From an uncultured Pseudomonadota bacterium (GTDB lineage Bacteria > Pseudomonadota > Alphaproteobacteria > Rs-D84), in NCBI GenBank assembly GCA_902802115.1, contig CADCKW010000002.1, positions 69,744-133,743 on the forward strand: a stretch of 64,000 nucleotides of DNA, given 5' to 3'. Positions within the stretch are counted from its first letter, which is position 1, and each line of letters opens with the position of its first letter. Of this stretch, positions 20,901 through 47,420 are shown piece by piece. The position numbers and the translations under genes are program-made. Below the pieces are notes generated by a model that saw only the letters and a program-made list of their open reading frames with translations, ran no database searches and had not been told where the DNA came from.

Positions 20901-21384
20901 TTTGTTTATCATGTCCGGCAATTGTGGTTATTTGCCATGGCAATTTAATAACACTTGGTTGTTTTTGTTTGGTTCCTTGGTTATCAATCAAACCAAACAA
21001 CGCCGACCGAAAGTTCGCGAAAGTACGGACGGCGTACGCACAGAGGAACGCGCCGACGTTCGCACTATGCCTCTTGAGGATTAACACCCAAGACACCGGT
21101 GTTATATCACGTGTCACAACACGACACCATGAGTTGTTCCCAGGTTTTGACGACGGTTCGCCCGATTTCGCATGTTCACCATTCGTTTCCGACGACATTA
21201 TGTGAAATTCGGTAATGTCTGGGTTTTGTTCCTGCATCCATGCAAAAACTTCTTTGATATAATCTATGTAATCTATTTTCTCACCACGATATGTTGTTGC
21301 CGATTTTCCACCAACGAAAACACCAACATCACCTTTTTCATCGCGTTTTACCGTAATATATTCTGTATCCGGTATATTTGTCAT
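20896..21384 (-). CDS. hypothetical protein, paralog 1 of tandem pair
   Basis: Shares the N-terminal 60 aa almost exactly (MTNIPDTEYITVKRD...VGVFVGG...FAWMQEQNP..EFHI) with the adjacent ORF. Confidence 0.5.
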   Translation of the reverse strand: MTNIPDTEYITVKRDEKGDVGVFVGGKSATTYRGEKIDYIDYIKEVFAWMQEQNPDITEFHIMSSETNGEHAKSGEPSSKPGNNSWCRVVTRDITPVSWVLILKRHSANVGAFLCAYAVRTFANFRSALFGLIDNQGTKQKQPSVIKLPWQITTIAGHDKQK

Positions 21385-21386
21385 AT

Positions 21387-21923
21387 TTACCCCCTGGTAT
21401 TTTGTCCAGATTTACGGACAACAATTTCATAAGCACCGATTTTATGTGTGCCAACAAATTTAGACAAATCTGTATCTTTTAACGCATTTGTTAATGCGTT
21501 TTGTTTTTTATTCGCCGCACCAAACACCGCCGAACGAAACGACGCGGAGACGCGGACGTAGCGCGCGCAGTAGTTCGCACAGTTGTGCGCACAATTGGCA
21601 GCCAAACTGGCCGTGTCGTAGAAGACCCAAGCACCCAATTTACCGTTTTTAAATTTTACCCGACACCATGCATTTGGACCAAACACACCATTCGGATTGC
21701 CCGGCTTTGCATGTTCGCCACGCGTTTTAAATGCGCCAATATGAAATTCCTCTATTTCTGGATTTTGTTCCTGCATCCATGCAAACATATTTTTAACATA
21801 TTGCATACCGCATATATCTTCACCATGATATGTTGTTGCCGGGTTTCCACCAACGAAAACACCAACCTGACCATCTTTGTCGCGTTTTACCGTAATATAT
21901 TCTGTATCCGGTATATTTGTCAT
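21387..21923 (-). CDS. hypothetical Cys-rich protein, paralog 2 of tandem pair
   Basis: Same conserved N-terminal region, divergent Cys-rich C-terminus (CAHNCANYCARY). Confidence 0.5.
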   Translation of the reverse strand: MTNIPDTEYITVKRDKDGQVGVFVGGNPATTYHGEDICGMQYVKNMFAWMQEQNPEIEEFHIGAFKTRGEHAKPGNPNGVFGPNAWCRVKFKNGKLGAWVFYDTASLAANCAHNCANYCARYVRVSASFRSAVFGAANKKQNALTNALKDTDLSKFVGTHKIGAYEIVVRKSGQNTRG

Positions 21924-22142
21924 ATTTTATCCTTTTTATATACACATATATAATATATTACAAAAAATTCATTTGTCAAGTTTAAAAAAGAAAAAATTTA
22001 TATATCACCCAATAAAGAACCAAACCGCCCAAATGGGCGGTGTTTTTGTTTAAAAATGCGCATAAAACCAATAAAAAAACTTGTAATTGTGGATTTTGTC
22101 GGTATAGTGATTAATAGACAAACACGCAACAGGTATATATTT

Positions 22143-26840: not shown

Positions 26841-26876
26841 AAAGGAATCCATTTGGAGAAAATTGGTTGGTTAAAA
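26841..26876 (+). repeat. direct repeat 2: non-coding copy of the rne 3' end
   Basis: AAAGGAATCCATTTGGAGAAAATTGGTTGGTTAAAA, followed by a terminator-like hairpin CGCCCGAAGATATCGGGCG plus T-run. Confidence 0.6.
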
Positions 26877-27450
26877 TTAAAACGCCCGAAGATATCGGGC
26901 GTTTTGTTTTATTTAAAAAACTTATAAATAAAAAAGGATCGCGCGGTCCATTTTTATTTGTTGCATTGCGTTGATCTATACAGAATTGTATTAGTAGGAT
27001 TTAATCGTGCCTTGTTCTTTTCAAAAGATATTTCCTTGGTATTGTTTGTCGAATCAGAGGTCAACACATTGTCACAAACACCAAAAATTAGAAATATACA
27101 CAGTGCCCCGGCACAACAACCATAAGTAAAAATCTGTAATGGGAGTATTGGATTATTCTTGAGTTTTTCCTCACGCATAAGTTGTTTGTACAAATTATTT
27201 TTTTTATTCATAATTTACCTCTTATACCAAGATTATTCGTAGGCAAATGTAGCACAAAAAAATTACACTGTCAAACATTTTACCTAAAACTCAATATTGT
27301 GTCCAAGATGTTATGCGACCGGGGTGCTGCGCCAATATTGAAACATTTGCTGACGCAAATCGGCATACTCTCGTCTGCCTTTCACCTGCGGTTCGAACGG
27401 ATTGTTCGCCGGCTCGAACCAAATTATATTCACACAATAAATAAAAAAAA

Positions 27451-27478
27451 CACCCCTGACGGGGTATTTTTTTTATTT
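27451..27478. terminator. terminator hairpin downstream of the tRNA-Ala/tRNA-His unit
   Basis: ACCCCTGACGGGGT followed by a T-run. Confidence 0.5.
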
Positions 27479-33260: not shown

Positions 33261-33314
33261 TTTGTAATCATAAAAATTATTGCAATAAAACACAAAAATG
33301 TTTTATCATGTTTT

Positions 33315-33696
33315 ACAGAATATAACGGGAGTTATATTCGGGGCTGTCGAAAGCCTGGCTTACCCGGTGCAAAAAATTGTATCGTTATTCCGAATCGCTG
33401 GGATATTTTGTCCCATGAGTTTTTGATATAACATTTTCAGTTTTTTGCGCCGACATATATGAATATTTGTCGGCGTAATTTTTATGCGACAATTGTTTGT
33501 ATATAAAATCCAACTGATTTAAACCCTAAACCAATGTGTTGGTCAGGGTGCCGCATATACGAAAGATATGCGGAGTCACTTGGTATAGCTGATTTTCGAA
33601 CACCCCGACCGCTTCTCTCGTTAGCGGTATTTTTATTTTTTTGCATCGCAAAAAATAAAAATCACGCCACATACCAAAAACCAAAGGGGAGAACAA
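33315..33696 (+). promoter_or_regulatory. conserved leader (about 380 bp) of the variable secreted-protein family, copy A
   Basis: Aligns with the leaders of copies B (48326-48710, minus strand) and C (58902-59295). It begins ACAGAATA(C/T)AACGGGA.TT.T.TTCGGGG and ends with the AT-rich IR TTTTTATTTTTTTGC-ATC-GCAAAAAATAAAAA (about 33630-33662), 35 bp before the ATG. Confidence 0.6.
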
Positions 33697-34605
33697 ATGA
33701 AAAAGATATTATGCGCATTGTTGGGAATGTTGCTTGCCGGGACATCGTGGTCGGCCACCCTGCCCGCCGGTTATACACAACTTGAATATATTGAATCAAC
33801 AGGGGCACAGTATATTGATACAGGGATTTCTGGGTTTAACACTGGGGATTGGGAAATTTATGCCAAATGGATGACGACTGTTTCAACCCAACCGGCCAGT
33901 TATGGTTTCATTTTTGGTGTGTATACAGATGAATCGCACAATTCGTACAGGTTGATTTTTAATCAAACAAATTCTGGGAAGTATTTTATTAGCGCAAATT
34001 CAAGAGCTGGTGGTGGCAGTATAGCTGTTTCAGCAAGTACAAATGCGATTCATAACGTAGTGGTCAAAAATGGTTCTTTTGTATTAGATGGACAAAATTA
34101 TCAAGCACCTAATGCTGGAACAGCATTGCCGGCGGATTCTAAATTGGGAATATTTAGATGCGATGAAAATGGTTCATATGCGTCAAAAGGTGTCGCCAGA
34201 CTTTATTCTATGAGTGTGAAAAAAGATGGTGTTTTGATTGGTGATTTTGTTCCTGCAAAAAATTCGTCTGGCGTAATTGGTATGTATGATACGGTTGGTA
34301 ATCGTTTTTATACAAATCAGGGTACTGGGGAATTTATTGCCGGTCCAGAGGTTTCTATCCGCATTGCGACGACGGCGTATAACAGCGCGCGGTTTAGCCC
34401 AGTGGTGACTGAATTGAACGACACGATTGCAACGATACGAAATGTCGTGACGAACACTATTAACCAAACCAAAGCCATTGCGGATTTGCAGGCAACCAAA
34501 CAAACCCGCCCAGACGAGAACTGCCCCGCCGGTAAAAAATGCCTGCTGGTTGAAGACGATGCCGGCGTGCCGCATTGGTATGAGATTATCGAAAACGCAG
34601 ATTGA
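33697..34605 (+). CDS. variable secreted protein family, copy A (type-I N-terminus, conserved C-terminal module)
   Basis: Signal peptide MKKILCALLGMLLAGTSWSA; N-terminal TLPAGYTQLEYIESTGAQYIDTG shared with 51490 and 52307; C-terminal 90 aa (IRIATTAYNSARFSPVVTELNDTIATIRNVVTNTINQTKAIADLQATKQTRPDENCPAGKKCLLVEDDAGVPHWYEIIENAD) over 90% identical to copies B and C. Confidence 0.7.
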   Translation: MKKILCALLGMLLAGTSWSATLPAGYTQLEYIESTGAQYIDTGISGFNTGDWEIYAKWMTTVSTQPASYGFIFGVYTDESHNSYRLIFNQTNSGKYFISANSRAGGGSIAVSASTNAIHNVVVKNGSFVLDGQNYQAPNAGTALPADSKLGIFRCDENGSYASKGVARLYSMSVKKDGVLIGDFVPAKNSSGVIGMYDTVGNRFYTNQGTGEFIAGPEVSIRIATTAYNSARFSPVVTELNDTIATIRNVVTNTINQTKAIADLQATKQTRPDENCPAGKKCLLVEDDAGVPHWYEIIENAD

Positions 34606-34684
34606 CAGTTTTGATTTTGTTTGGTCAAGGCCCTGAATTCAACTCCCATTAAAAAAAGTAAGGCTGCCAGACAGAGTCAAGAAG

Positions 34685-34710
34685 CACCTGATGAAAATCA
34701 GGTGTTTTTT
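34685..34710 (+). terminator. family 3' hairpin terminator (CACCTGATGAAAATCAGGTG plus T-run)
   Basis: Perfect 8-bp stem plus T-run; an identical hairpin recurs at 34838-34865 and on the minus strand at 47421-47450. Confidence 0.6.
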
Positions 34711-34837
34711 GTTGGCCCCGAACAACTCGCTCGGTTCGCTGTCGCTTTCCTGCGCGGCACTCGTGACAAATCGCCTGACGGCTCTTTTACTCGTAGTCCC
34801 ATTAAAAAACAAGAGGCTTTTGTTTCTAAATCAAGAA

Positions 34838-34865
34838 ACACCTGATGAAAATCAGGTGTTTTTAT
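34838..34865 (+). terminator. second copy of the family 3' hairpin terminator
   Basis: ACACCTGATGAAAATCAGGTGTTTTT, preceded by a 45-bp stretch identical to the copy-B 3'UTR. Confidence 0.5.
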
Positions 34866-34937
34866 GTAAAAATAAATTTCCATTTATAAAAAATCCCCGG
34901 CAATGCCGGGGGATTATCGAGTATTGTTTTATATGCT

Positions 34938-35195
34938 TTATTTTATAACGGCGGATTTGATTAATGTGACATCTTCTTTGATGCCGTCTATTTTTAATTG
35001 CAATTGTCCCAGTCCGGTTTCCAATATTGTTGTGCGATTTTCCAATGCGGTAATGCGACTGTCGGCGCGTTCCAATTCCGCAACCGATGAATCTTGGCGT
35101 GCAACCCAATATACCGCACCAAATGCAAATGCCAGTAAAAACCAACTGTTTCGCAATATTTCCAATATATTCATAAAATCTGTTTTTTTTGGCAT
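34938..35195 (-). CDS. small membrane-anchored coiled-coil protein (phage-associated, function unknown)
   Basis: One TM helix then a heptad region; ends the portal-side phage-like block. Confidence 0.35.
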   Translation of the reverse strand: MPKKTDFMNILEILRNSWFLLAFAFGAVYWVARQDSSVAELERADSRITALENRTTILETGLGQLQLKIDGIKEDVTLIKSAVIK

Positions 35196-35198
35196 GAT

Positions 35199-35399
35199 TT
35201 AACTCCCTGCTTTGCCACGCGATATCATTTGTTCGATTTGTCGCACAAATGCCCGGTTCGATTCAGCCCAACGCAATTCGTTGTCTGTCGCGTTTGGTCC
35301 CAATGTGCGTTCCAATGTAATTTTACGCATGTGTTCCAATACCGCACGACCCGCAGGTGTCCCAAATGCACGCGCATATTGTTTTTCTATTTCTGTCAT
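35199..35399 (-). CDS. small phage-associated protein downstream of portal
   Basis: 66 aa, translationally coupled to the portal gene; its position matches the small conserved gene after the portal in GTA/HK97-type clusters. Confidence 0.4.
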   Translation of the reverse strand: MTEIEKQYARAFGTPAGRAVLEHMRKITLERTLGPNATDNELRWAESNRAFVRQIEQMISRGKAGS

Positions 35400-35409
35400 T
35401 TTTTATCCT

Positions 35410-36633
35410 TTATATTCCCATGTCACGCGTCGCAATCGCAATTGGTGCCAGATATTTTAATTCCGCATCACTGTGTAATGATATCGGTTCTATAACACCA
35501 CGACGCGATAAAATCTGTAATCCGCGTTCGCATAATGGACGTATGAATTCATGCAATACGCGACCATATGTCGCACCCAAAATACGCATCATGTCTGCAT
35601 TGCGTGCCAAAACCTCGGTCGCGGTCATTTCGCGTTCCGCCAACAAACTTAATCTGTCCGCCAATAATGTATGACGAATACGGTCGCGCAAATCGTTTAA
35701 TATCAATTGCGACACATCAAAATCGGCGCCACTGTGTAATGGTGTTAAACCAGAACTGCCCACCGCTTTTGGTATTATCGCCCCAGGTGTCAGATTGATG
35801 TTTTGCAAATTTATAACACCATCATCGTCGGCCTGCCATATACCACTGACGGCGATGGTCGCATTTTTCAAAACCAATTCTACAACTTTGTTCGCCGTTT
35901 TGATGTCTGGCAATGCACGCAAAATTGGACTGCGACCGTATAATTCGCCACTTTGCACAGACCAACGAAAGATTAAATACGGATTCGTTTCAAATGTACC
36001 TGTGGCGACGATATTGTTTTCAATGTCGCCACCAACGTCCAACCATGCAACAAATTCCTTATCAATCAATGATTGAATCATACGTATCGGGGTGTCTGGA
36101 TTTTTTTCAAATTTATTGCGCAAATTCGATGGCGCGTTCCATGTTGGATATCGCAATAAAACATCACCAAATGTTATTGTCGTGGTGTGAAAAATCGCGT
36201 TAGGTAAAATGGCTAAATCTGTGACGGGAATCGCAGTAAATGAAAACGCAGATGCCGCCCCAATTGGATTTTCCGCCATAAACATACATGCAGTACCATA
36301 TATACATAAATCCATATATGCCTGATGCACAGTCGTATAAAAATTTGAATCATTTAAATTTGCACGCAACGCAGTTGTTGCAATTTCTGGGTCTGGGGAC
36401 ATATCACTTTCACGCACCAAATTTATCCATAATGATTCAGGTGGTGTTAAAAGTGTGTATATCGATGCCGCTAAATTATCAACTGCATCGGCAGCGGTGC
36501 CATCAAACAATGTCGCCGTTTCATTATCTGCAATTGGAACAGTATAACGGCGCGCTTCGTCCCAACGGTGCAACCATGGTTCGCGCAATGTTATCGCTTT
36601 GTTATACATTTTGGTTAAGTTTTGAATATTCAT
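35410..36633 (-). CDS. phage portal protein (HK97/GTA-type)
   Basis: 407 aa, a typical size for GTA/HK97-type portals (inference); immediately downstream of the terminase nuclease-domain fragment in the GTA order terminase-portal. Confidence 0.55.
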   Translation of the reverse strand: MNIQNLTKMYNKAITLREPWLHRWDEARRYTVPIADNETATLFDGTAADAVDNLAASIYTLLTPPESLWINLVRESDMSPDPEIATTALRANLNDSNFYTTVHQAYMDLCIYGTACMFMAENPIGAASAFSFTAIPVTDLAILPNAIFHTTTITFGDVLLRYPTWNAPSNLRNKFEKNPDTPIRMIQSLIDKEFVAWLDVGGDIENNIVATGTFETNPYLIFRWSVQSGELYGRSPILRALPDIKTANKVVELVLKNATIAVSGIWQADDDGVINLQNINLTPGAIIPKAVGSSGLTPLHSGADFDVSQLILNDLRDRIRHTLLADRLSLLAEREMTATEVLARNADMMRILGATYGRVLHEFIRPLCERGLQILSRRGVIEPISLHSDAELKYLAPIAIATRDMGI

Positions 36634-36653
36634 TTTTATTCCTTTTTTTATTT

Positions 36654-37700
36654 TTATACTTTGAAATTTGTGTTCGCATTATATGTGCGACATGTTTGTC
36701 CCAATGGGCGTATCGGTGTCGGTGTTATATTTATCGCCCCAGATACCGCGTCCAAACCATCATCATGATAAGAACTGCCAATTGGTGACCAACCTAACAT
36801 TTCAGCCATAAATGGTGTTCGCGTTATTCGTGTGTGCGCAAACATACGCGCCGCCCCCAGTAATGGTTCAAATGTGTTTAAAATTCTTGTTTCTTTTTTT
36901 GTATTATTTGTGATTTTTTGGACATATATTCCGCCACCACGTGATGCAATTTTGTCACCTAATATTTCTGGCAACGCATTTCCCAGCCCATTTGTTTCAA
37001 CCGTCACACGATGCATGTTATATCGTTCCAAGAAATTCAATACTAAATCGCATTGGTATGTCAAAGGCTGGGGATGGTCAGGTGGTGTCACCATATATTG
37101 TATGTCGTGCAAAAATATCCTGTGTGTTTTATCGTCACGAAAAATCAGTGCAATAACACTGGAATCTGTTTTTTTGTGTCCCAATGACGGGTCCCAATAT
37201 ACAGATGCACCTGTGATTTTTTCTGTGCCGATTTGACCTGTTAAATTATTAAATTCTGTGTCATATATTTGTATCATGCCAGGGTCCAAACGGACACGTT
37301 CCAATGGCATGAATTCCAGCATCATTTGCGCCATAAAATGATGTTCGCCCACAGATTTCCTTAATTCATTTATTTTTTCTGGGGTAAAAACATCTGGCCA
37401 GGCAGAGTTTCCGGCACTGTCCAAAATCGGCAGAAAAAATTTTTGAAATCCTGATAAAAAAGGCGTTGAAAATTGAAATTTTTTATTTACTATAACAGAC
37501 ATGGACTTTACCCCTAAGACTTTACCGACAAATCTCGAAGCCGAACAGGCTGTGTTGGCGGCTGTGTTGATGAATAATCGCGCATTGGAACGCGTTTCCG
37601 ATTTTTTAAAACCTGAACATTTTTCACACCCAGCGCACCAAGAAATGTATCGTTTGGCATTGCGTAAGTTTTCCATAGCCGAAGAATTCGATATCATCAC
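36654..37700 (-). pseudogene. terminase large subunit, C-terminal nuclease-domain fragment
   Basis: RNase-H-like nuclease signature (VYWDPSLGHKKTDSSVIALIF...), no Walker ATPase region; the ORF's 5' end overlaps the dnaB start by about 200 nt. Confidence 0.55.
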
Positions 37701-39075
37701 AATTAAAAATTACCTGCAACAACAAGGCATTTTGGATTCTGTCGGCGGTATCGATTATTTGACCGAGTTGTCCCGCGCCGGCGCAACAGTTGTTAATGTC
37801 GAACAATACGGACGCATCGTTTATGAAAATGCTATGCGACGCCAGTTAATTGAACTGGGGCAATCCATTATTGACGATGCATATATCGAAGATTTGGATA
37901 AACCTGTGGCACGTCAATTAGAGGTCGCAGAACAAAAGTTGTTCGAAATGGCGTCCAGTGGTGTCGCAGAACACGAACCAACAACGATTGGAAATGCTTT
38001 GCAATCCGCATTGGAAGAAGCACAAATCGCGTACCAGGCAGATGGAACATTGTCTGGTTTGACAACAGGATTAACCGAATTGGACAAGTCTATTAGTGGT
38101 CTGCACCATTCCGATTTAATTATTATTGCGGGACGTCCCGCCATGGGTAAAACAACACTGGCAATGAATATCGCATTCAATGCGGCAAATGCAATATTAA
38201 CAGGACGCGCAAATTCACATTACAAAGGTGCGGTTGCATTTTTCTCGCTTGAAATGTCTGCGCCCCAGTTGGCGACACGTGTTTTGTCATCACAAACAAA
38301 AATTCCGGCGACATCTATGCGTGAAGGTTCGCTGACCGATGAAGAATTTTTGAAAATGACCCAATATTCCAAGGCTATTTCACAAACACCGTTGGTTATC
38401 GATGATACCGCCGGTATGTCTGTGCCAATGATTCGAACACGCGCACGCAGATTGGCACGCAAATACGGTGGAATCGCGTTGATTGTAATTGACTATTTAC
38501 AGTTGATGATGTCGCCTGGCGGAAAACGCAGCGAAAATCGCGTGCAAGAATTGTCTGAAATTACCCGCGGATTAAAAATGCTGGCCAAAGAATTAGATGT
38601 GCCGGTTATCGCCCTGTCCCAGTTGTCACGCAGTGTCGAAATGCGCGATGATAAACGACCACAATTGGCAGACTTGCGTGAATCTGGTTCTATTGAACAG
38701 GACGCCGATATTGTTATGTTCACATATCGTGAAGAATACTATTTGGATAATCGTGACCCGTCACAAAGAATTTCAACAACAACATCACAAAATAGTGTCG
38801 AAACATGGCAAAAACGTCTGGAACGCGCACGCGGCAAGGCAGATATTATCATCGGCAAAAACCGTCATGGCCGTCCAGAAACTGTGCATTTGGCTTTCTT
38901 GGGCGATTATTGTTTGTTCGATAATTTGGACGAAATGGCGGCGCGGACAATGGACGCACCTTTGCCGGGTGATTTTGGAACAAACACACAAAATAATGTT
39001 GATTCTGGGCCGGCACCAACAGATGATAATGCGGGTGTTGATGTTTCGGCAATTCCTGATGATATTGCACTGTAA
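37501..39075 (+). CDS. dnaB: replicative DNA helicase DnaB (with about 50 aa C-terminal extension)
   Basis: N-terminal primase-interaction region LPTNLEAEQAVLAAVLMNN, Walker A GRPAMGKTT, typical DnaB motifs. Confidence 0.85.
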   Translation: MDFTPKTLPTNLEAEQAVLAAVLMNNRALERVSDFLKPEHFSHPAHQEMYRLALRKFSIAEEFDIITIKNYLQQQGILDSVGGIDYLTELSRAGATVVNVEQYGRIVYENAMRRQLIELGQSIIDDAYIEDLDKPVARQLEVAEQKLFEMASSGVAEHEPTTIGNALQSALEEAQIAYQADGTLSGLTTGLTELDKSISGLHHSDLIIIAGRPAMGKTTLAMNIAFNAANAILTGRANSHYKGAVAFFSLEMSAPQLATRVLSSQTKIPATSMREGSLTDEEFLKMTQYSKAISQTPLVIDDTAGMSVPMIRTRARRLARKYGGIALIVIDYLQLMMSPGGKRSENRVQELSEITRGLKMLAKELDVPVIALSQLSRSVEMRDDKRPQLADLRESGSIEQDADIVMFTYREEYYLDNRDPSQRISTTTSQNSVETWQKRLERARGKADIIIGKNRHGRPETVHLAFLGDYCLFDNLDEMAARTMDAPLPGDFGTNTQNNVDSGPAPTDDNAGVDVSAIPDDIAL

Positions 39076-39153
39076 TTTTTAATGCAGATTTTACTTGCCA
39101 AATATTTAAAAATTGACTAGACTTTTGTCAAGTATTTAACAGGAGTACCAATC

Positions 39154-40161
39154 ATGGCCCAAGAAGAAATCATTTTTCCTAATAATATTAGAACTATCCG
39201 TTTGAATAACGGTATGAAGATGACGGAATTGGCACGCAGAACAGGATTAAGTCTGTCGGCGGTGTCCAAAATCGAAAAAGGCGTGCGTCGTTTAAACCAA
39301 AAACAGTTGCTGAATATATGCAATATTTTGGGTTGCAAACTCTCTGATATTTTCATCAAAGAATCCGATGCAGTTGCAGGTAAATGGCAAACAGAAATCA
39401 AACGCCGTTTAAATGATAATGAACATGGTGGTTTAAAGGTGTTTGGTTCGGGTCTGCGTAAAATCCGTCAAATCAAAGGAAAAACTATTGCCCAGGCGGC
39501 ACGCGATGCAGGTATGACTTTGTCTGTGTATCACAAAATCGAAATCGGCCAACGCGAAATTTATAAAAACGAAGTTGAACCTTTGGCTAAATCTTTTGCG
39601 ATGTCGGCAAATGAAATGTTTGATAAAATCGCAAATTTATATAAATCTGGCGAATTGACCAAACAAATCAACAAGGTCAAAGAACGCGTTAAATCTGTAT
39701 TGATTCCTGACAATCCTGTATCTGGGATTGATATGCACGACGGTTTGTATGGTGCAAAATTGTATGACAGTGCGCGTCGTAAATTGGTTCCGGTGTTTGG
39801 CTCACCTGCGGGCAAATCAATTTCTTTCAAGAAAAACGACAAAATTATGATTGTCGCACCAGCTTCATTGGAAGGTCGCAAATCTATTTATGCGGTTATA
39901 CCAAATTCAAAACGCAGTGGTGGATTTATTCCGGAAAAATCATATGTGTTCGTTGATGCGGCACAACCTGCAAATGTTGGCGATTTGGCATTGTGTATGA
40001 ATGCGGATTTTTCAAAGTTAAATCCTGATGATGTTGTTGATGCACATATTGCGGTGGTTCATAGTGATTCCAAGGGCAAAATGTATGGCGCATTGGTTGA
40101 TCCCCAAGAAAAAATCAGCGCAACAACTATGCACAAAGTCGTTTTGATTTTGACCGAATAA
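39154..40161 (+). CDS. XRE-family transcriptional regulator with two helix-turn-helix domains
   Basis: Two Cro/CI-type HTH repeats (IRTIRLNNGMKMTELARRTGLSLSAVSKIEKG and LRKIRQIKGKTIAQAARDAGMTLSVYHKIEIG) plus a C-terminal domain. Confidence 0.6.
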   Translation: MAQEEIIFPNNIRTIRLNNGMKMTELARRTGLSLSAVSKIEKGVRRLNQKQLLNICNILGCKLSDIFIKESDAVAGKWQTEIKRRLNDNEHGGLKVFGSGLRKIRQIKGKTIAQAARDAGMTLSVYHKIEIGQREIYKNEVEPLAKSFAMSANEMFDKIANLYKSGELTKQINKVKERVKSVLIPDNPVSGIDMHDGLYGAKLYDSARRKLVPVFGSPAGKSISFKKNDKIMIVAPASLEGRKSIYAVIPNSKRSGGFIPEKSYVFVDAAQPANVGDLALCMNADFSKLNPDDVVDAHIAVVHSDSKGKMYGALVDPQEKISATTMHKVVLILTE

Positions 40162-40181
40162 TTTTTATACGGAGAGAGAAT

Positions 40182-40841
40182 ATGAAACCAAAAGCAAATC
40201 TGGTCGCACAAAGATTGGTTAATCTGTATCGCCAAGAGCATGTTATATTGGGTGGCTGGGCCGCGTTAAATCCGGTATTTGTCCAAGAAGCCACAGACGA
40301 TGTTTTGGACGAAATGGCAGATTTGCCGACTGGTAAATTATTGGTTCAACATATTAAAAATCTGCGCAGTGGTAAAACACCAATGGATTCAATCGAACGC
40401 GATTTGTTGCCATACGGTGGTTTAATGGGCGAATCTGGTGTATCAACCCCAATGTCAAACGAACAATGGCACGAATTAAGTGATGCATTGAATAATTTTG
40501 TTCCAAACCAACAAGGTCTTGAAAATCTACAAAAATTAGATGTTGTAAAAAAATTCGGTGACGAGTGGTTGGTTGGAATTAAAAACATGCTGTCTGGGGA
40601 CACAGAATTGGCTGAAAAATGGAAGGTTGTTATGCAAACTTGGCGCGCATATCATTTGTGGGATATGGCAACCCAGATAATCAACCAACCATTAACAGAA
40701 CGTATGCGCGCACAAATCCAAGCCGATATGCCAGAATACGAAACTTTCTTGCCAATGTTTGCAGAACCCGGCAATCAGTTGTTGGCAAAATTGCGTTCTT
40801 TTATGAGTGATAAAAAACGCCCAAGTTCAACCGATAATTAA
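40182..40841 (+). CDS. hypothetical protein
   Basis: ORF track only; RBS GGAGAGAG upstream. Confidence 0.4.
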   Translation: MKPKANLVAQRLVNLYRQEHVILGGWAALNPVFVQEATDDVLDEMADLPTGKLLVQHIKNLRSGKTPMDSIERDLLPYGGLMGESGVSTPMSNEQWHELSDALNNFVPNQQGLENLQKLDVVKKFGDEWLVGIKNMLSGDTELAEKWKVVMQTWRAYHLWDMATQIINQPLTERMRAQIQADMPEYETFLPMFAEPGNQLLAKLRSFMSDKKRPSSTDN

Positions 40842-40843
40842 CA

Positions 40844-41455
40844 TTATTCGCCCTGCTCTGTATTTTCTGTGCGATATATTGTATCGGTGGTGTGTGGTGT
40901 GCCGATATATATTATTGTGCCATGGGGCGACAAAATAAAATCTAATTCACGCAGTCTTTCACGCAGTGCCTCGCGTTTTTGTGGGGTATTGCATGTATTT
41001 GGAACCTCTACGTCATCACATATTATTAAATCTGCACGCATACCTGTTATATTACCATGGATTCCTTGGCATACAACAGACGGTTCGCGAATACCAATTG
41101 GACGATTTATTGTTATTTTATCTGCCGACCATTCTTTTTTCGATTTTGGAATTAAATCTGTGCAAAACGGGTGGTTTTCCAATATATTTTTTATATGTGC
41201 CACCATGCGTGATGCCAATGCGGTGTGTGCAGATAAAACCAAAATTCTGGTTTCTGGGTGTAAATATAAAACACATGCCGCAAAAATTCCAACAACTGTT
41301 GATTTGCCAGAATGACGAAATGCCATCAGCAAACCTTTACGATTATTAGATTCCAATACACCAAATAAAAATTTTAACATTTCGTAATGATGATGCGGTG
41401 TTTGGTATCCTAAAATTTTGTTCCATTGGTCTGCAAATTGTAATACAGGATTCAT
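40844..41455 (-). pseudogene. terminase large subunit, N-terminal ATPase-domain fragment
   Basis: Walker A AFRHSGKSTV, Walker B ADLIICDDVE; ends where the plus-strand insert begins; same strand and order as the nuclease fragment at 36654-37700. Confidence 0.6.
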
Positions 41456-41460
41456 CGATT

Positions 41461-41808
41461 TTATCCAACAATTTTATTAACACGCGACAACCAAGATTTT
41501 AATAAATTTGGTTTTTTGGCGGATGTGGTGGCTATTTTTGCCAAATTAGAATTCTTTTTTTCATTATATGGTTCGGCAATTTCATCACGCAATCTATTTA
41601 ATACCGCGCCAGATGTGGTGCTGGACGCACTGACGCCGGATGCGCCATATTTTGCGCGTTGTGTTGCCAAGGCTTTTTTTATTAAATTTGTTTTTGCGCG
41701 TTCGTCTTTGGCAATTTGTTGTAAAATTTCTTGCCGTTTATTGTTTGATGATTTTTTGTTTTTTTGATAATTCAAAACATCTGTGACATCTGATACAAGT
41801 TGTCCCAT
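41461..41808 (-). CDS. small phage protein upstream of terminase (possible small terminase subunit)
   Basis: Basic, helical; start taken at ATG 41808 with AAGGAG RBS. Confidence 0.3.
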   Translation of the reverse strand: MGQLVSDVTDVLNYQKNKKSSNNKRQEILQQIAKDERAKTNLIKKALATQRAKYGASGVSASSTTSGAVLNRLRDEIAEPYNEKKNSNLAKIATTSAKKPNLLKSWLSRVNKIVG

Positions 41809-41824
41809 TTTAAACTCCTTTGGA

Positions 41825-43537
41825 TTAAATTTCATATTGTCCGTAAATTGTGACAGATAACACCGTAATTGGTTCAGGTTCATTACCACTGATTTGCCAT
41901 GGTGATATCGATACATCAATTTGCGAACCTAAAAAATTCATAGATATATCGCCAGAAAAACCACTGGACGACGCATCATAAATTTCGTTTGGTAATTCCA
42001 GGCGCATATTGTTTATAAATGCCCCTTTGGTTTCCACCAGCCGTAAATTGACTTTGCGTAATCTTAAATGTTTTGGTCTGTGTCCTGAAAAAGACAAAGG
42101 TAATCCAGATGCGCAAAATTCTATATCATGCGTTCCAGAATCTGTCAATGCGGTGCCAGAAAACTTTGCTAATTTATATGTGCCTGTGTTTTCCAATACA
42201 ACATACGTTGTGTTTCCTATGACCACAACAGATTTAAATTTTGCATACGAACTGTATCGCGACCATGCAGAAATACCCAAACCAACATTTTGATTTAATA
42301 CCGCCATGGTGCCATCTGCATTTACCAAATATAATTGTTTTAACTCTTTGTTATACGTAATATCCACAGGCGAATTTAACATATGTTTTGAAAACAAACA
42401 TAAATCATCAGCATTATACCTTTCGCCAAGTGTATCCAATGACAATTTGCGAATATCACGCAGTGTGCTGGATACAAACACTGTATCACCTTCGATTTTT
42501 TGTGGTGGTAAATTACATATGGTTGGGCTGCCAACGGTGGTGTGTTGAACTATATTCATACTGGACGGTGTGACCGGTTGATTTGCGATTGCCCATTCAC
42601 CCGCAGATGTTAAAACCTGTAATTTATCACTGCTGATTAAACTGCAAACTTGCTGGCGTTCTTTGGATAACAAAGTTGTTGAAATTGCCTCGTCATCTAA
42701 GCCAGAGCCCGCATCAAAATTATGATAATCACCAACATGCGACATCCATATTCCCCCAGGTGTTGCGCGTGTTCCACCAAAAACTAATCTGTCTTGGTGA
42801 AATGTGATTGCAATTGGCCAACCATGTTTATCATCAAATGCACTTTCCAACCAATCTGTCACAGGGGCAGCCGGCAAAGAATATTCAATTGTGCTGGTGG
42901 CATAAACGACTGTGGGACTTATATATTCTGTAATTTGCCAATTTTGGTTATTAAAACGCAATATTGTGCCAATATTATCGGGTGTCCAATAATTTTTAGA
43001 TGCAGTTAATATTGCAGATTGTACGCCATGAATTCCGGCTGTGACAGATATGTTGATACCATACATGTCATCATATTTCATAAATGGCATACGCGGATAT
43101 ACACCTGTGGTGTCGTAAAAATTAAATTTATCCAGAGTAAAATCATTTCCTGATTTTTTAAATACATACGGACAATAATCAGGTTGAACAAAAACCAACG
43201 AATCACTGAAACCGGCGCATTGTAAATGTGTAAGTGCAGATTCTGGCCATGGGGAACTTATTATTTTCAACAATGTATCATTTGAATATACGGATACTGT
43301 ATTATTTGAAAACACCAAAATATAATGTTCTGTATTTGAAATATCATATGAAAAAATACGCGAAAAACCTGGCAATATGGCGACATCAACCAAACCGGCG
43401 CGACGCGTTAATCCCCCACCAGACAATACGTCCATATTTTCCAAACGTGACAGACCATAAATATCTTTGTTCAAATAAAATTCTGGCGCAATTTCACCAT
43501 GCGCAAATGAATTTTGCGTGTGTATAAATTCTGTCAT
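41825..43537 (-). CDS. phage tail protein (possibly T7 gp12-like tail tubular protein B)
   Basis: 570 aa, beta-rich; segment ITFHQDRLVFGGT...NF resembles a recalled conserved gp12 motif (inference). Confidence 0.35.
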   Translation of the reverse strand: MTEFIHTQNSFAHGEIAPEFYLNKDIYGLSRLENMDVLSGGGLTRRAGLVDVAILPGFSRIFSYDISNTEHYILVFSNNTVSVYSNDTLLKIISSPWPESALTHLQCAGFSDSLVFVQPDYCPYVFKKSGNDFTLDKFNFYDTTGVYPRMPFMKYDDMYGINISVTAGIHGVQSAILTASKNYWTPDNIGTILRFNNQNWQITEYISPTVVYATSTIEYSLPAAPVTDWLESAFDDKHGWPIAITFHQDRLVFGGTRATPGGIWMSHVGDYHNFDAGSGLDDEAISTTLLSKERQQVCSLISSDKLQVLTSAGEWAIANQPVTPSSMNIVQHTTVGSPTICNLPPQKIEGDTVFVSSTLRDIRKLSLDTLGERYNADDLCLFSKHMLNSPVDITYNKELKQLYLVNADGTMAVLNQNVGLGISAWSRYSSYAKFKSVVVIGNTTYVVLENTGTYKLAKFSGTALTDSGTHDIEFCASGLPLSFSGHRPKHLRLRKVNLRLVETKGAFINNMRLELPNEIYDASSSGFSGDISMNFLGSQIDVSISPWQISGNEPEPITVLSVTIYGQYEI

Positions 43538-43559
43538 TTCATTTCCTTTTTTTAAATAT

Positions 43560-44078
43560 TTAAAATCGTGCGTCTATCAAAGAAAATTGCCTGACCCCGG
43601 TATTAATATCTGTGGTGGAATCAATAAATTTCGCGTTTTGATATTCTGCGTCGTATAAGTTAATTAATATCCGCAACATCTGTTGATTGCCGGTCAAAGG
43701 CACACAAAATTCTATTGCCAATTTTGTTGCCGCCAATGATACAAAATAACTGGGGAAAAATTCTGGTTCAACACGTTGCAAAGCCAATATTTTTACACTT
43801 TGTGATTTCGATATAATTTTATTACCAATAATATGTCCATCACAACGCAATATACGCAAAACATTTGATGGTATTATAAATTCATCATTTTCATTTTTTT
43901 CAATTTCAAAATTTTTTGATGCAAAATGCCAAGGGTGTGTTGATATCAACGAATCAATCGTTGTGTCGTATAATGTTCGCGCCAATTGCGCAGATGCGGT
44001 ATCTGCATTTATCGATGTTAATGGTTGTTCGCCTAATTTTAATAATGCCATAGAACATAAATCTTGTTTAGTGACCAT
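43560..44078 (-). CDS. phage structural protein (possibly gp11-like tail adaptor)
   Basis: 172 aa between the capsid and the large tail protein; by position only. Confidence 0.3.
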   Translation of the reverse strand: MVTKQDLCSMALLKLGEQPLTSINADTASAQLARTLYDTTIDSLISTHPWHFASKNFEIEKNENDEFIIPSNVLRILRCDGHIIGNKIISKSQSVKILALQRVEPEFFPSYFVSLAATKLAIEFCVPLTGNQQMLRILINLYDAEYQNAKFIDSTTDINTGVRQFSLIDARF

Positions 44079-44159
44079 ATTGAAATCCTTTATAAAAAAA
44101 TAAAAAAAAGGGGCGCAAACAATCGCGCCCCAAATGGTTGGATTATATATTATTTATTT

Positions 44160-44390
44160 TTAAGCCAACGCACCAACAGATACCGCCGATGCCGAAACAG
44201 TAATTTTCTTGATTGCTGTGCTGTCCGATGCATTGATAATGATAATATCGCCAGTATTCATCAATGTAATAACATTATTGAAATAACCACTGGTGCTAAT
44301 CGCCGTCATTGTTTCGTCTGCGACATAGTGCCACAAAGTGAAACCATTTGCATACGCAATCACAGATAATTTTTTATTTTGAAATGCCAT
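44160..44390 (-). CDS. small phage structural protein
   Basis: 76 aa ORF between capsid and tail genes. Confidence 0.25.
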   Translation of the reverse strand: MAFQNKKLSVIAYANGFTLWHYVADETMTAISTSGYFNNVITLMNTGDIIIINASDSTAIKKITVSASAVSVGALA

Positions 44391-44428
44391 CTGTTTTTCC
44401 TTTTGGTTGTTTTGTTAAAGCGTTAAAT

Positions 44429-45253
44429 TTATGCATTATCTTTGCATTTGACACGAACGATACCGTCTTGGTCAATCAATACGGCACCTTGGGACATGCT
44501 GTTGCTGATAAAGTGCGCTGCACGATCACCATGCCAAGAAATATCTGTTTTGACCTCTTGACCACATGCATGACCGATACTGGACGCATGATATATAAAG
44601 CAACTGCGTTGTGTTGTGCTGGCAAGTGGCAAATCATTGTGCAAAATCCATGTAATGCCCATCCATTTGCGAGCCTCGTATCCGTTTATCATTGGATATG
44701 AATCACCAACATAATCAGCAGATACAAATTCATTTATGCCCAATAATTCGTTCCATTGATGCACACCAACCACAGCAAATCTGCGACCGTCATCAGGAAC
44801 ATCTTTTTCATTTAATTTTTCAATGGCTTCCAAAATCAATGATTTGGTTAAACCTGTTGAAAAATCTCCAACATACGCAGTGGCATTATCCATGGCGCTA
44901 ATAATCAATTCATCAGTTTTACGACCCAATGCATATGCACCCGCAGATGCAACAACACGACGTTCATCGACATTGGTTTTTAATTCGTCCAAAGAATCGA
45001 CCCAATCACCTGCATAATAATCTTGCAAAACACATTCCACAGGTTGATGATTCAAATTCATAACTGGGACAATACCATGTCTGGATTTTGTGCTGGCGGT
45101 GCCACGACCGATTGTTTGAAAAGTGGTTGATTGTCCAACAACACCGGTTTTGCTGCGAACGGTTGGACGCAATTTTGTGCCCATTTGCTGATATGCAAGA
45201 TGAACATCTGCTTCGAATTGTTTCACAAAAACTTGATCTATGGAAACAGACAT
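44429..45253 (-). CDS. phage major capsid protein (podovirus/T7 gp10-like)
   Basis: 274 aa; C-terminal FIYHASSIGHACG...AHFISNSMSQGAVLID resembles T7 gp10 FMHRSAVGTVK...AKYAMGHGG; follows a scaffold-like gene. Confidence 0.45.
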   Translation of the reverse strand: MSVSIDQVFVKQFEADVHLAYQQMGTKLRPTVRSKTGVVGQSTTFQTIGRGTASTKSRHGIVPVMNLNHQPVECVLQDYYAGDWVDSLDELKTNVDERRVVASAGAYALGRKTDELIISAMDNATAYVGDFSTGLTKSLILEAIEKLNEKDVPDDGRRFAVVGVHQWNELLGINEFVSADYVGDSYPMINGYEARKWMGITWILHNDLPLASTTQRSCFIYHASSIGHACGQEVKTDISWHGDRAAHFISNSMSQGAVLIDQDGIVRVKCKDNA

Positions 45254-45395
45254 ATTTATTCCTTTTTGTTAAAAATTAAATTCATGTGCAAAAATGCACG
45301 ACAATAAAAAAAGATTTTGTTTTTTTGATTATGCAAATGAAATATTTGCGTCATATAACAAAAATGCGGGGTCAAACGGTGATTATCCTGCAACA

Positions 45396-45430
45396 GTTTT
45401 AGTTAGACTTTTTTTCATCTAACTAAAATT
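45396..45430. promoter_or_regulatory. 11-bp perfect inverted repeat in the capsid-gene upstream region
   Basis: TTTTAGTTAGA-N10-TCTAACTAAAA between the histone-like gene terminator and the capsid start. Confidence 0.35.
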
Positions 45431-45439
45431 ATTACAAAA

Positions 45440-45466
45440 AAACCGCAACGAATTGCGGTTTTTTTA
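45440..45466. terminator. bidirectional terminator hairpin
   Basis: AAAAAAACCGCAACGAATTGCGGTTTTTTT. Confidence 0.55.
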
Positions 45467-45485
45467 AATCACTTTAAAAGAAAAA

Positions 45486-45842
45486 TTATTTTCTTTTAGC
45501 AGCTGGTTTTTTGCATGCGCATTTTTTTGCCGCTGGTTTTGCAGCAACTTTTTTTGCAACAGGCTTTTTAGCAGCAACTTTTTTCACAGCGACTTTTTTA
45601 GCAGCTGGTTTTTTCGCAGCAACTTTTTTAGCCGCTGGTTTTTTTGCAGCAACTTTTTTCACTGCTGGTTTTTTCGCAGCAACTTTTTTTACAGCTGGTT
45701 TTTTTGCAGCAACTTTTTTCACTGCTGTTTTTTTTGCAGCTGGCTTTTTAGCAGCAGCTGGTTTTTTAGCGGCAACTTTTTTTGCAGCAGGTTTTGCAGC
45801 TGCAGGTTTTGTTGCTTTCTTTGCCAAGAATGAAAATGCCAT
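45486..45842 (-). CDS. histone H1-like Lys/Ala-repeat DNA-binding protein
   Basis: 118 aa of (AAKKPA/VKKV) repeats, resembling Hc1/BpH1/AlgP-type proteins; encoded by about 30-bp tandem DNA repeats. Confidence 0.6.
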   Translation of the reverse strand: MAFSFLAKKATKPAAAKPAAKKVAAKKPAAAKKPAAKKTAVKKVAAKKPAVKKVAAKKPAVKKVAAKKPAAKKVAAKKPAAKKVAVKKVAAKKPVAKKVAAKPAAKKCACKKPAAKRK

Positions 45843-45969
45843 TCTTCTCTCCTTTTTATGTTTTGGTTAGAACAAAACTTTTTTTGTTCTTGATTCTATT
45901 TTAACTTAAACAAAAAAAATAGTAAAGAAGAATTTGATTTTTTATGAAATGTTTTTTCATTTTTTTATT

Positions 45970-46626
45970 TTATGAATACAATTTTTTAAAACCATTTTCA
46001 ATTTTTCTAACATATTCTGGATCTGCATCTCGCCAATATTTTGGGTCACGCATCATGCGTCGCAATTCATCATCTGTTAAATTTTCTGTCGCACCATTTT
46101 CCATTTCAACACGTGGTTCCATTGATTGCATCATTTGATATATGCCTTGGATTCCCTGGGCGCTGGCGCACAAAGATTCAAATGCATCATGTGGTAAAAA
46201 TTTTTCACCAAATGTATTTATCGCATTTAATGCATCGTTCATTTTTTCTTTGCCACCAAAAAATTTTTCCAATTTTAAAATTTCATTTGTTTCATTTTTT
46301 GCACTCATCAATTCATTTATCACAGGTGATAAAAATTTTTCTGCCAAACCATAAATTTGTTCAACTTGATTTTTTGTTAATCCAATATCATGAAATTTTT
46401 GTTTAATCGATTCGTCATCGAACAACGCATTTGATGGATAATCATTTGCATTTTCTGGCACACCAATTGCACGATTAAATTTTTCACGCGTGGCATCATC
46501 GGCATTATCATTTGGCACAGATACCATCGTTCCAATTTTCTTTTCCAATTCTGTATATGATTTTACCAACGCATCAACATTAACCGAACCGTCAGTGTTT
46601 TGAAATTTTTCTGGGATTTTTTGCAT
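45970..46626 (-). CDS. phage scaffolding/capsid-assembly-like protein
   Basis: Acidic helical protein directly upstream of the capsid; start at MQKIPEKF (46626) with AAGGA RBS. Confidence 0.4.
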   Translation of the reverse strand: MQKIPEKFQNTDGSVNVDALVKSYTELEKKIGTMVSVPNDNADDATREKFNRAIGVPENANDYPSNALFDDESIKQKFHDIGLTKNQVEQIYGLAEKFLSPVINELMSAKNETNEILKLEKFFGGKEKMNDALNAINTFGEKFLPHDAFESLCASAQGIQGIYQMMQSMEPRVEMENGATENLTDDELRRMMRDPKYWRDADPEYVRKIENGFKKLYS

Positions 46627-46822
46627 TGTTATTCCTTTTTGTTTCTGTTGATTTGCGCAGAAAATAAATTCCGCCAAGTGTAAATATCGATTGCAGTGTT
46701 ATAAACAAATCTGTATCACCAACCAAATAAGATGCGACGGCAGACAAAATTCCCACAGATGATATTATATATGTTCTGTGTCCTGCCAATGCGCCACCGC
46801 GAATAATTTTTTGCATTTTCAT
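46592..46822 (-). CDS. small two-TM protein (holin-like)
   Basis: 76 aa, two hydrophobic helices, basic C-terminus; adjacent to the cell-wall hydrolase. Confidence 0.3.
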   Translation of the reverse strand: MKMQKIIRGGALAGHRTYIISSVGILSAVASYLVGDTDLFITLQSIFTLGGIYFLRKSTETKRNNNAKNPRKISKH

Positions 46823-46835
46823 TTTTTATATTCCG

Positions 46836-47246
46836 TTATCGATAGAAAAACAAACCGTCCATTTCCAAAATATAACCACGTGCGATTGACCATGATGGAT
46901 TAAATTCATTGCGATGAAATTTGGTTGCACCAAAACAACAATCTGGTAAATTGTTTTTTAACATTCTGTCGCAGACACGCAAACACATTTGAAATGCTTT
47001 GGCATTTGGATTTACATTTAATAAATCATGATGCGTTGATTTTTTATCCAGACTTTCAAATAATCCAGACTGTGTAATAAAATCAGTTGGTGAAATTCCA
47101 TTAACACGCGCACCATTTGCAATCATCGAAGCCAAGGCTTCAACAACACGCAGTGATTGCCCACATGTTTCTGCATATATTACACGTGCAATTTTATAAA
47201 CATCGCGTGCAAAATCGTTTTGATGTTTAATCAGTGTTAATTGCAT
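46836..47246 (-). CDS. SleB-type cell wall hydrolase
   Basis: IARVIYAETCGQS...VEALASMIANGAR matches the Hydrolase_2/SleB family common in alphaproteobacterial phage and GTA clusters. Confidence 0.6.
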   Translation of the reverse strand: MQLTLIKHQNDFARDVYKIARVIYAETCGQSLRVVEALASMIANGARVNGISPTDFITQSGLFESLDKKSTHHDLLNVNPNAKAFQMCLRVCDRMLKNNLPDCCFGATKFHRNEFNPSWSIARGYILEMDGLFFYR

Positions 47247-47420
47247 TGTGGTATCCTTTGGTTAAAATAAAAAAGGCCACGAAAAATCGTGACCAAAAAA
47301 TATGAGTAAAAAAAATCACGCCAAATGTGACGCGTATAATTTCTGCTCTTGATGGTTTGTATTATATCACAAATCGAGTTGCAAGTCAAGAATATTTCAA
47401 AATACATCGGTGCATTATAA

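Follow-up and report, generated by a model that had tools for sequence, protein, structure and literature searches.

A candidate repertoire of recombining, phase-variable lectin-like surface proteins in reduced-genome gut Alphaproteobacteria

Organisation of the gene family

The DNA analysed here is a stretch of 64,000 nt (hereafter the window) from contig CADCKW010000002.1, positions 69,744 to 133,743, of assembly GCA_902802115.1, which derives from an uncultured alphaproteobacterium of the GTDB lineage Rs-D84. It harbours three complete genes, designated A, B and C, belonging to a family of predicted secreted proteins in which conserved blocks surround a variable core. An initial annotation, made by a model from the sequence, had described these as a three-gene family, and the open reading frames (ORFs) of all three are present as it gave them; a fourth locus, D/E, and the invertible element in front of it had been overlooked.

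Gene A (33697-34605, plus strand) encodes 302 amino acids (aa) and is a type-I member of the family, with a signal peptide at approximately 33697-33756, a type-I core at approximately 33757-34353 and a C-terminal module (C-module) at 34357-34605. It is preceded on the same strand by a promoter-like site at 33280-33309 (TTGCAA, an 18-nt spacer and TATCAT), recognised by scanning and as conserved alignment columns, and by a leader RNA at 33312-33696. Its 3′ untranslated region (UTR; 34606-34866, plus strand) holds the family 3′ block and terminator hairpin in two tandem copies, with the hairpins at 34686-34705 and 34840-34859. Gene B (47519-48325, minus strand; 268 aa) combines a signal peptide and C-module with a core unrelated to those of A and C, and a protein identical to it is held in the public collection as P0147. 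The promoter-like region and leader of B occupy 48326-48751 on the minus strand (TTGCAA at 48751-48746, structured leader at 48717-48326), and the second 3′ block of A matches its 3′ UTR (47415-47518, minus strand; terminator hairpin at 47426-47445) at 97 % identity. Gene C (59296-60192, plus strand; 298 aa) follows a plus-strand region at 58864-59295 that comprises a promoter-like TTGCAA (58864) and a structured leader (58899-59295), and consists of a signal peptide, a type-II core (GTPTPTNP...YYVLATP) and the C-module, with a 3′ UTR at 60193-60291 (plus strand).

The −35-like TTGCAA is conserved before B and C too, and the complete TTGCAA-N18-TAtcAT site lies approximately 385 nt 5′ of each ATG. 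Self-BLASTN aligns the upstream DNA of B and C over approximately 480 bp (72 % identity) and that of A and B over approximately 170 bp (86 %), and a three-way alignment of the upstream regions runs from end to end at a mean column identity of 75 %; the leader, first reported as alignable over about 390 bp, is therefore confirmed at approximately 385 nt. At the other end, the last approximately 240 nt of each gene, together with approximately 100 nt of 3′ UTR, display 84-87 % DNA identity among A, B and C by the same method, and the C-module (79-82 aa) is 94-99 % identical at the protein level. The cores, by comparison, have no significant BLASTP similarity to each other (E > 0.3). Sec-type signal peptides were recognised by eye in all three proteins from their n-, h- and c-regions and the SWSA/T motif. 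A highly conserved C-module, a Sec-type signal peptide and mutually unrelated cores had all been claimed by the initial annotation, and all three claims hold; it had also considered that the shared ends might prove no more conserved than the cores, whereas comparison of DNA and protein shows conserved ends and unalignable cores.

The 3′ UTR motif GAATTCAACTCCCATTAAA has exactly three matches in the window, one 3′ of each gene, against 0.05 expected by chance. The hairpin CACCTGATGAAAATCAGGTG is found twice after A and once after B. Gene C retains the GAATTCAACTCCCATTAAA block but terminates in a different hairpin, ACACCCAGAATTTTCTGGGTGT (60263-60284), such that the single terminator proposed for all members holds for A and B only.

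Distribution and domain arrangement

Protein A has 612 homologues, none of them annotated, and every one with a named organism comes from a gut or rumen alphaproteobacterial metagenome-assembled genome (MAG) of animal origin, including two named Candidatus Enterousia onthequi. Candidatus Enterousia is placed in the order Rs-D84; its genomes, at 0.75-1.0 Mb, are missing most biosynthetic pathways, and it has been proposed to live in dependence on a partner (PMC12306168). Scans of A, B, C, ORF E (from the D/E locus) and long family members against Pfam, NCBIfam and PHROG gave no match at E ≤ 1 or 0.01, in agreement with the earlier failure to place the proteins in a named family. When a profile of the C-module was scored against 1.84 billion representative sequences (50 % identity), it retrieved a closed set of 334 proteins (314 below 1e-10) of 92-1173 aa, in which the module often lies mid-protein. 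The rumen MAG RUG13870, which is 91-97 % identical to the window in shared flanks, contains at least 12 family copies, a number taken from a single-sequence query of a genome collection in which RUG13870 was the sole MAG reached. Further copies and variants beyond the window, which the initial annotation had anticipated, are thus present both among the homologues and within this one genome.

The type-I motifs (LPAGYT.LEYIESTG.QYIDTG ... GMYDTV..FYTN.GTG.F.AGP) occur in A, D, E and hundreds of homologues, with the type-I core of A being 37 % identical to ORF E. At least 26 other members share the C-type core (GTPTPxNP...YYPLAT), which is also met with as one domain among several in long members; the 26 homologues found for it include none outside the family. 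Of the two N-terminal types originally distinguished, type I therefore stands by its motifs, whilst the type-II regions are not unique to single genes. Short members consist of signal peptide, core and module, whilst longer ones carry one to three type-I domains 3′ of the module, or strings of type-I and type-II domains before it.

Exchange of cassettes between strains

Contigs for comparison (L-numbers) were obtained from a metagenome scan with an 18-mer from the leader, which returned 63 loci; eight of these align to the leaders beyond the 18-mer, and most of the others look like chance matches. At the B locus, L021 is 98.6 % identical to the window up to 47406 and 98.3 % identical from 48310, with 1.7 kb containing a different gene between these points. 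L041, with flanks of 97.7 % and 98.2 % and breaks at 48285 and 47414, has a third, unrelated gene inside. At the A locus, L022 possesses the same allele as the window (97.4 %), L038 has another gene between breaks at 33828 and 34903 (flanks 98.5 % and 97.1 %), and L005, from RUG13870, breaks at 33656 and 34363. At the C locus, L032 keeps the core (93 %) but its leader is interrupted by 250 nt of inserted sequence and its protein is extended by an additional C-terminal type-I domain, and L011 (RUG13870; flanks 91-93 %) has a complete unit of a second subfamily with its own upstream element. Core swapping between strains, which the initial annotation had proposed to look for, is thus found at the A and B loci within flanks of 97-99 % identity, and replacement of a whole unit at the C locus.

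The leader remains locus-specific between strains (95-99.8 % identical) while the coding part differs. Divergence starts in the 3′ end of the leader, in the signal peptide or in the N-terminal strand, and stops in the C-module or terminator. Because the leader stays with its locus as the coding part changes, the swaps would have used family-conserved sequence as arms of exchange, with the ribosome-binding site (RBS), signal peptide or N-terminal strand on one side and the module, 3′ UTR or terminator opposite. A staggered crossover would account for the 3′ block being duplicated in tandem after A. An integron or attC-like cassette was set aside on anatomy alone, there being no integrase nearby.

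A GC-rich insert of approximately 250 nt, resembling a miniature inverted-repeat transposable element, lies between leader and ATG at two different loci in two strains (L005 1569-1827 and L032 6029-6332; copies 98.8 % identical), and fragments of it are found by other cassettes (L021 5880-5963, L011 4190-4273 and L004 3371-3418). The GC-rich stretch 3′ of gene C (approximately 60290-60570 of the window) includes a related 43-nt piece at 60528-60569. In L043 (661-1320), approximately 630 nt of GC-rich, hairpin-rich sequence separates the leader from a family gene and contains a copy of the family 3′ UTR block, which suggests the remnant of a deleted upstream cassette.

A structured leader RNA in subfamily 1

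Alignment of the leaders of A, B and C with seven others, ten different sequences in all, gives, using RNAalifold, a closed domain of approximately 330 nt on the sense strand with 71 pairs in 11 helices. Across these pairs 94 % of cells are paired, compared with 38-49 % when partners are slid by 1-3 columns, and compensatory changes occur in 25 pairs, compared with 7-8 when slid; none of 500 shuffles reached any of the observed measures. One long-range helix exists in four co-varying variants (TCGAAAA/TTTTCGA, TAGAAAA/TTTTCTA, TGAAGA/TCTTCA and TCACAA/TTGTGA), and in a second all four pairs co-vary. In the leader of A, helix H1 is at 33318-33325/33332-33339, and the long-range closing helices are at 33340-33343/33603-33606, 33347-33353/33593-33599 and 33360-33363/33582-33585. 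These are followed by a small hairpin (33608-33628), a U run (to 33636), an AU hairpin (33637-33655) and the RBS GGGGAG. G-U pairs are frequent in the helices, which fits transcription from the strand of the gene. The leader is thus conserved as an RNA fold by way of compensatory changes, and not as a passive block of homology. A small ORF within it was rejected, as loop indels break the frame between copies and the conservation is that of base-pair covariation.

A covariance model covering the 3′ half of the leader was run over 332 kb and retrieved exactly the 17 known instances, three of which are in the window (33509-33633 for A, 48390-48516 for B and 59110-59232 for C), each upstream of a family gene. 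Before subfamily-2 genes in the same 332 kb the model had no match. When the window was compared with Rfam 15, only three tRNAs passed the gathering threshold, and the best sub-threshold match on the leader scored 21.5 bits against a gathering score of 53.

The leader is probably a cis-regulator, and the small hairpin followed by a U run at its end could make it one of the attenuator type. Rather more tentatively, and as a proposal that we regard as plausible without thinking it probable, it may represent a new class of large, complex-folded cis-regulatory RNA that senses a signal and gates the lectin-fibre repertoire proposed below, acting together with a mini-inverton of the Gin type in front of the sister genes. 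Bolder still would be to assign the leader, located exactly at the 5′ boundary of the exchanged cassettes, a role in the exchange process.

A second subfamily with a putative invertible element

The fourth locus, D/E (51490-52885, plus strand), is a long-form gene of subfamily 2 made up of ORF D (51490-52365) and ORF E (52307-52885). Its layout comprises a signal peptide (MSVKRAFF...), a type-I core, the C-module and a second type-I domain, and it differs from A, B and C in its signal peptide and its upstream element. The gene is broken, with approximately 38 module codons deleted and a frameshift near 52290-52300; ORF E, as these lesions show, is the remnant of a long-form gene and not a silent cassette.

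Upstream of D/E is an invertible element at 51299-51430 (no strand assigned), in which palindromic AAACCTAGGTTT sites at 51299-51310 and 51408-51419 enclose an A/T-rich segment of 99 bp. These are the two sites found in the window, where 0.11 would be expected. The core of the site, A-tract-CC-TA-GG-T-tract, bears what we take to be a resemblance to the hix/gix consensus. The same two-site layout precedes 10 other subfamily-2 genes and is absent before A, B and C. In L003b and L010 the 99-bp segment is reverse-complemented relative to the others, with an identity of 0.77-0.81 when reversed as opposed to 0.57-0.60 when read forward. A promoter-like TCGAAA-17-TATAAT (51401-51429) straddles the right-hand AAACCTAGGTTT site. 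In L003, one family gene is divergently adjoined by a gene for a 215-aa serine recombinase (Resolvase and HTH_7 domains), whose closest solved relative is the Gin invertase (E = 7e-11). The 99-bp segment would be a phase switch, putatively flipped by a serine invertase of the Gin/Hin type.

In L052 (11543-12677) the gene behind the subfamily-2 invertible element has a signal peptide of yet another, third type (MVGENKVKRLFVLGLLVV...) before its C-module; control elements and coding parts have thus themselves been recombined.

Selection on the conserved ends

Codon analysis of the module gives a synonymous divergence (dS) of 0.55-0.75 and a non-synonymous divergence (dN) of 0.014-0.054 among A, B and C, with a median dN/dS of 0.084 over 93 pairs, and paralogous modules within RUG13870 share 74-89 % DNA identity. 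These values show that purifying selection acting on the protein, as opposed to homogenisation through recent gene conversion, keeps the module as it is.

The same figures bear on the simplest account of the family, namely that A, B and C are ordinary paralogues of recent duplication, with flanks too young to have diverged and no special mechanism. Multigene families are common, and the flanks are indeed alignable. Synonymous divergence in the module is, however, near saturation despite a protein that is almost unchanged, the helices of the leader have been kept through compensatory substitutions, the cores are unalignable in spite of their conserved flanks, and alleles at one locus differ between strains that are otherwise 98 % identical. 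The module divergence and the compensatory changes in the leader contradict this explanation, which is the least credible of those weighed here.

The initial annotation had compared the family to msp2/p44 of Anaplasma and pilE/pilS of Neisseria. In programmed antigenic variation of that kind, a single expressed copy would be rewritten from silent donors via the conserved ends, and the conserved ends around a variable centre, the many copies per genome, the differing cores at one locus in close strains, and an ORF E with neither signal peptide nor module are all what such a system would leave. Each of A, B and C is nevertheless a complete unit with promoter-like site, leader, signal peptide, full ORF and terminator; ORF E, by virtue of its deletion and frameshift, is better seen as a relic than as a silent cassette; and tracts of near-identity between paralogues are absent, as the module values above demonstrate. 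Rewriting by gene conversion is thus very unlikely. What endures of the original suggestion is its general form, recombination-driven variable proteins with conserved ends and a variable centre, supported by swaps between strains and loci; the msp2/p44 and pilE/pilS mechanism does not, since the units are all complete and their ends have not been homogenised.

Predicted architecture of the proteins

A monomer model of A, built with AlphaFold2 (AF2) on an alignment of 34 sequences, comprises a beta-sandwich at residues ~20-217 (predicted local distance difference test score, pLDDT, ~90), followed by one helix (230-266) and a beta-hairpin (282-296). In this model the type-I core takes the form of a two-sheet jelly roll of the ConA/LamG-like kind, which is the outcome that the initial annotation had raised as a question for structure prediction. 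A Foldseek search of the BFVD collection gives, as top matches of A, uncharacterised phage proteins from gut metagenomes (E = 1e-16, 24-26 % identity). Both the first strand (LPAGYTELEYIESTGTQYIDTG) and the last strands (VPAK..S..VGMYD.V...FYTN.GTG.F.AGP) hardly vary across the family alignment, and the approximately 150 residues between these type-I strands are unalignable.

The C-module displays heptad-spaced hydrophobic and polar residues and a nearly invariant Cys-x5-Cys (CPAGKKC), conserved in at least 90 % of sequences. Compared with PDB sequences using phmmer, it had no match below E = 1, fibritin and foldon included. The heptad spacing, the cysteine pair and the modelled helix and hairpin suggest that three modules may pair up as a coiled-coil neck under a disulphide-braced beta-hairpin cap, which would make the whole protein a trimeric lectin fibre. 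The signal peptides and the cysteine pair are consistent with export to an oxidising compartment, and the proteins may be exposed at the surface, where they would bind ligands that vary, for instance the glycans of a partner or host cell.

Being modular, apparently exported, lectin-like in their heads and highly diverse between strains, the proteins might instead be secreted toxins or bacteriocins that follow polymorphic-toxin logic, with variable heads for targeting in bacterial competition. None of the members scanned, including 10 long ones, contains a toxin or enzyme domain, no small immunity-like gene adjoins A, B or C, and the variable part has a binding-type fold and is not a C-terminal toxin. 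We therefore consider a role as toxins even less probable than rewriting by gene conversion.

The T7-like cluster between A and B

Between A and B, at 34938-47246, is a T7-like structural cluster, also found in L079, L080 and L081, with genes for portal, scaffold, capsid, tail-tube A/B, terminase and lysis proteins; no fibre, core, polymerase or integrase genes were found among the cluster ORFs examined. Gene order and synteny, with birA upstream, are kept in a relative of approximately 70 % DNA identity on a contig of approximately 0.96 Mb, and the capsid displays 80-93 % identity across the best 120 of 4153 homologue clusters. The cluster looks like a domesticated podovirus-type element, possibly akin to a gene transfer agent (GTA), resident in reduced-genome gut Alphaproteobacteria. 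No description of it was found in the literature, where the only podovirus-like GTA encountered is FpGTA of Faecalibacterium (PMC12946183).

The large terminase gene is split at the boundary of ATPase and nuclease (36654-37700 and 40844-41455, minus strand), the halves matching phrog_38 positions 283-459 and 483-710. Between them is a 3.1-kb block on the opposite strand (37501-40841) encoding a DnaB helicase, a regulator with two helix-turn-helix motifs and a protein of unknown type. As the split is conserved in the distant relative (L080/L081), it would seem to be old and either tolerated or functional. A Lys/Ala-rich repeat protein resembling histone H1 (AAKKPAAKKVAAKK...) is encoded at 45486-45842 (minus strand), between the scaffold and capsid genes; L080/L081 have an ORF of similar length (114-119 aa) in its place, matched by position and length alone.

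This setting raises the possibility that the family supplies the T7-like cluster with the tail fibres or receptor-binding proteins that it lacks. The cluster has no fibre gene, A and B stand at its two ends and point inwards, and the closest structural relatives of the type-I domain that carry a sequence signal are gut phage proteins. A coiled coil with a terminal beta-hairpin recalls phage fibritin, and Gin-type invertases classically switch phage fibre genes. Against this, the proteins begin with what look like Sec signal peptides, and their nearly invariant cysteine pair suggests an oxidising compartment; PHROG has no match to the proteins; and most family copies lie dispersed among housekeeping genes, distant from the cluster. 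L080/L081, with the same cluster and synteny, have no cassette at the B position or in the approximately 480 bp of A-side flank examined, and in L037 (an 82 % relative) the cassette beside the phage-like cluster, at the B position, is oppositely oriented. The cluster is also far more widely spread than the family, with its 4153 capsid homologue clusters compared with approximately 600 family homologues. A scan of IMG/VR for members in viral contigs returned solely the chromosomal B locus, which is flagged as viral there because of the T7-like cluster beside it. A tail-fibre role is accordingly unlikely, although we rate it above the other alternatives considered.

Elsewhere in the window, a segment of approximately 1.1 kb (20898-22024) is missing from the 98 %-identical L022; it holds one of two tandem paralogous ORFs (20896-21384 and 21387-21923), whose repeats are 79 % identical. 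A tRNA region at 26849-27476 also differs between strains.

Interpretation

On balance, we judge it somewhat probable that the family constitutes a recombining, phase-variable repertoire of surface lectin fibres in reduced-genome gut and rumen Alphaproteobacteria. Each unit, to judge from its sequence, is a self-contained expression cassette, consisting of a promoter-like site of the sigma-70 kind, regulatory element, signal peptide, one or more variable heads, the approximately 80-aa module, and 3′ UTR with terminator. The heads would be exchanged as cassettes, and the copies would be controlled either by the leader RNA or by the 99-bp invertible element. In such a scheme the conserved blocks common to paralogues would serve as homology arms for exchange between loci and strains; the module would trimerise as a coiled-coil neck, displaying variable heads on a trimeric lectin fibre; and the exported fibres would bind variable ligands, for example glycans, at the partner or host cell. 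The leader would gate subfamily-1 genes in cis, with attenuation at its hairpin and U run as one possible means, and a serine invertase flipping the 99-bp segment would phase-switch those of subfamily 2. The net result would be a changing set of adhesion or evasion proteins whose members could be switched one by one.

A number of observations weigh against this reading. With regard to exchange, none of the swapped cassettes was found to have an identical donor copy, and the source may be either a paralogue or another strain; the boundaries of divergence between strains mark differing alleles and not necessarily points of crossover; and paralogous arms of 74-89 % identity are a poor substrate for RecA. 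The ten leaders are all paralogues or orthologues of one clade. For the proposed switch, both orientations of the 99-bp segment are seen between paralogous loci only, never at one locus within a population, and inversion would change the −35 and leave the TGTATAAT −10 in place. A tBLASTN search with the L003 recombinase finds no second copy, either in the window or at any other locus compared. As for the proteins, the C-module reaches only moderate confidence in the AF2 monomer (pLDDT 50-75), the model of C is poor and finds no fold match, a core fold being predicted for type I only, and no outer-membrane anchor or secretion route was identified.

The family makes up more than 1 % of a genome of under 1 Mb, and, being hypervariable between strains and putatively switchable, is the obvious candidate for an interface with a partner, the host or phages. 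For Candidatus Enterousia and Rs-D84 it provides concrete targets in finding the partner. Large, complex-folded bacterial RNAs are few, and each is informative; the leader, unusually large and with good support for its structure, has no Rfam family. Two control devices, the RNA leader and the 99-bp inverton, have been grafted onto one protein scaffold, and, if the exchange proposed here is real, conserved functional modules double as recombination arms.

Comparison with known systems

The family shares with pilE/pilS and msp2/p44 its conserved ends, hypervariable centre, many copies, and recombination as a source of diversity. Unlike those systems, it has no division into expression site and silent cassettes, its ends are not homogenised, and exchange is seen between strains and loci as opposed to within a clone.

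With regard to the predicted heads, ConA-like lectins, LamG and pentraxin domains, including phage tailspike and receptor-binding modules, share the predicted jelly-roll fold, but differ in that the present family has no Pfam LamG or ConA match, and the signal peptide and the combination of conserved terminal strands with a hypervariable interior are peculiar to it. Collectins, and T4 fibritin with its foldon, offer a parallel for the modelled architecture as a whole, having a globular head joined to a heptad-like helix that ends in a small beta-hairpin, and a conserved neck with a variable head. Here, in contrast, there is no sequence similarity to solved structures, the predicted head lies at the N-terminus and may be joined by others beyond the module.

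The leader resembles T-box and cobalamin leaders, and RNAs of the OLE, ROOL and GOLLD type, in its length of 330-385 nt, its multiple helices, its long-range closure, its strong covariation and its 5′ UTR location ending in a hairpin and U run. It differs from all of these in having no Rfam 15 match, and in being known before only one protein family in a single clade.

The invertible element is similar to Hin, Gin, Cin and Pin systems, and to Mpi of Bacteroides, in having a short segment by a promoter-like site between inverted sites, and a small serine recombinase with HTH_7 as its candidate enzyme; a single recombinase serving many promoters in trans would be an arrangement like that of Mpi. 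It departs from them in a segment of only 99 bp, a palindromic central TA, no identified enhancer, and a recombinase that is unlinked to most loci and absent from the window.

The closest published design is that of the mpl genes (P35 family) of Mycoplasma penetrans, approximately 30 in number, each with its promoter bounded by 12-bp inverted repeats (PMC3047005). There, the inversion is performed by the tyrosine recombinase MYPE2900, whilst the only candidate here is the Gin-like serine recombinase; the proteins are unrelated; and A, B and C carry an RNA leader and no switch. Despite this, both are cases of a reduced-genome, host-dependent bacterium with dozens of paralogues for surface or, here, putative surface proteins, and with short invertible elements that belong to individual genes, built from 12-bp inverted repeats in mpl and from 12-bp palindromic sites around a 99-bp segment in subfamily 2.

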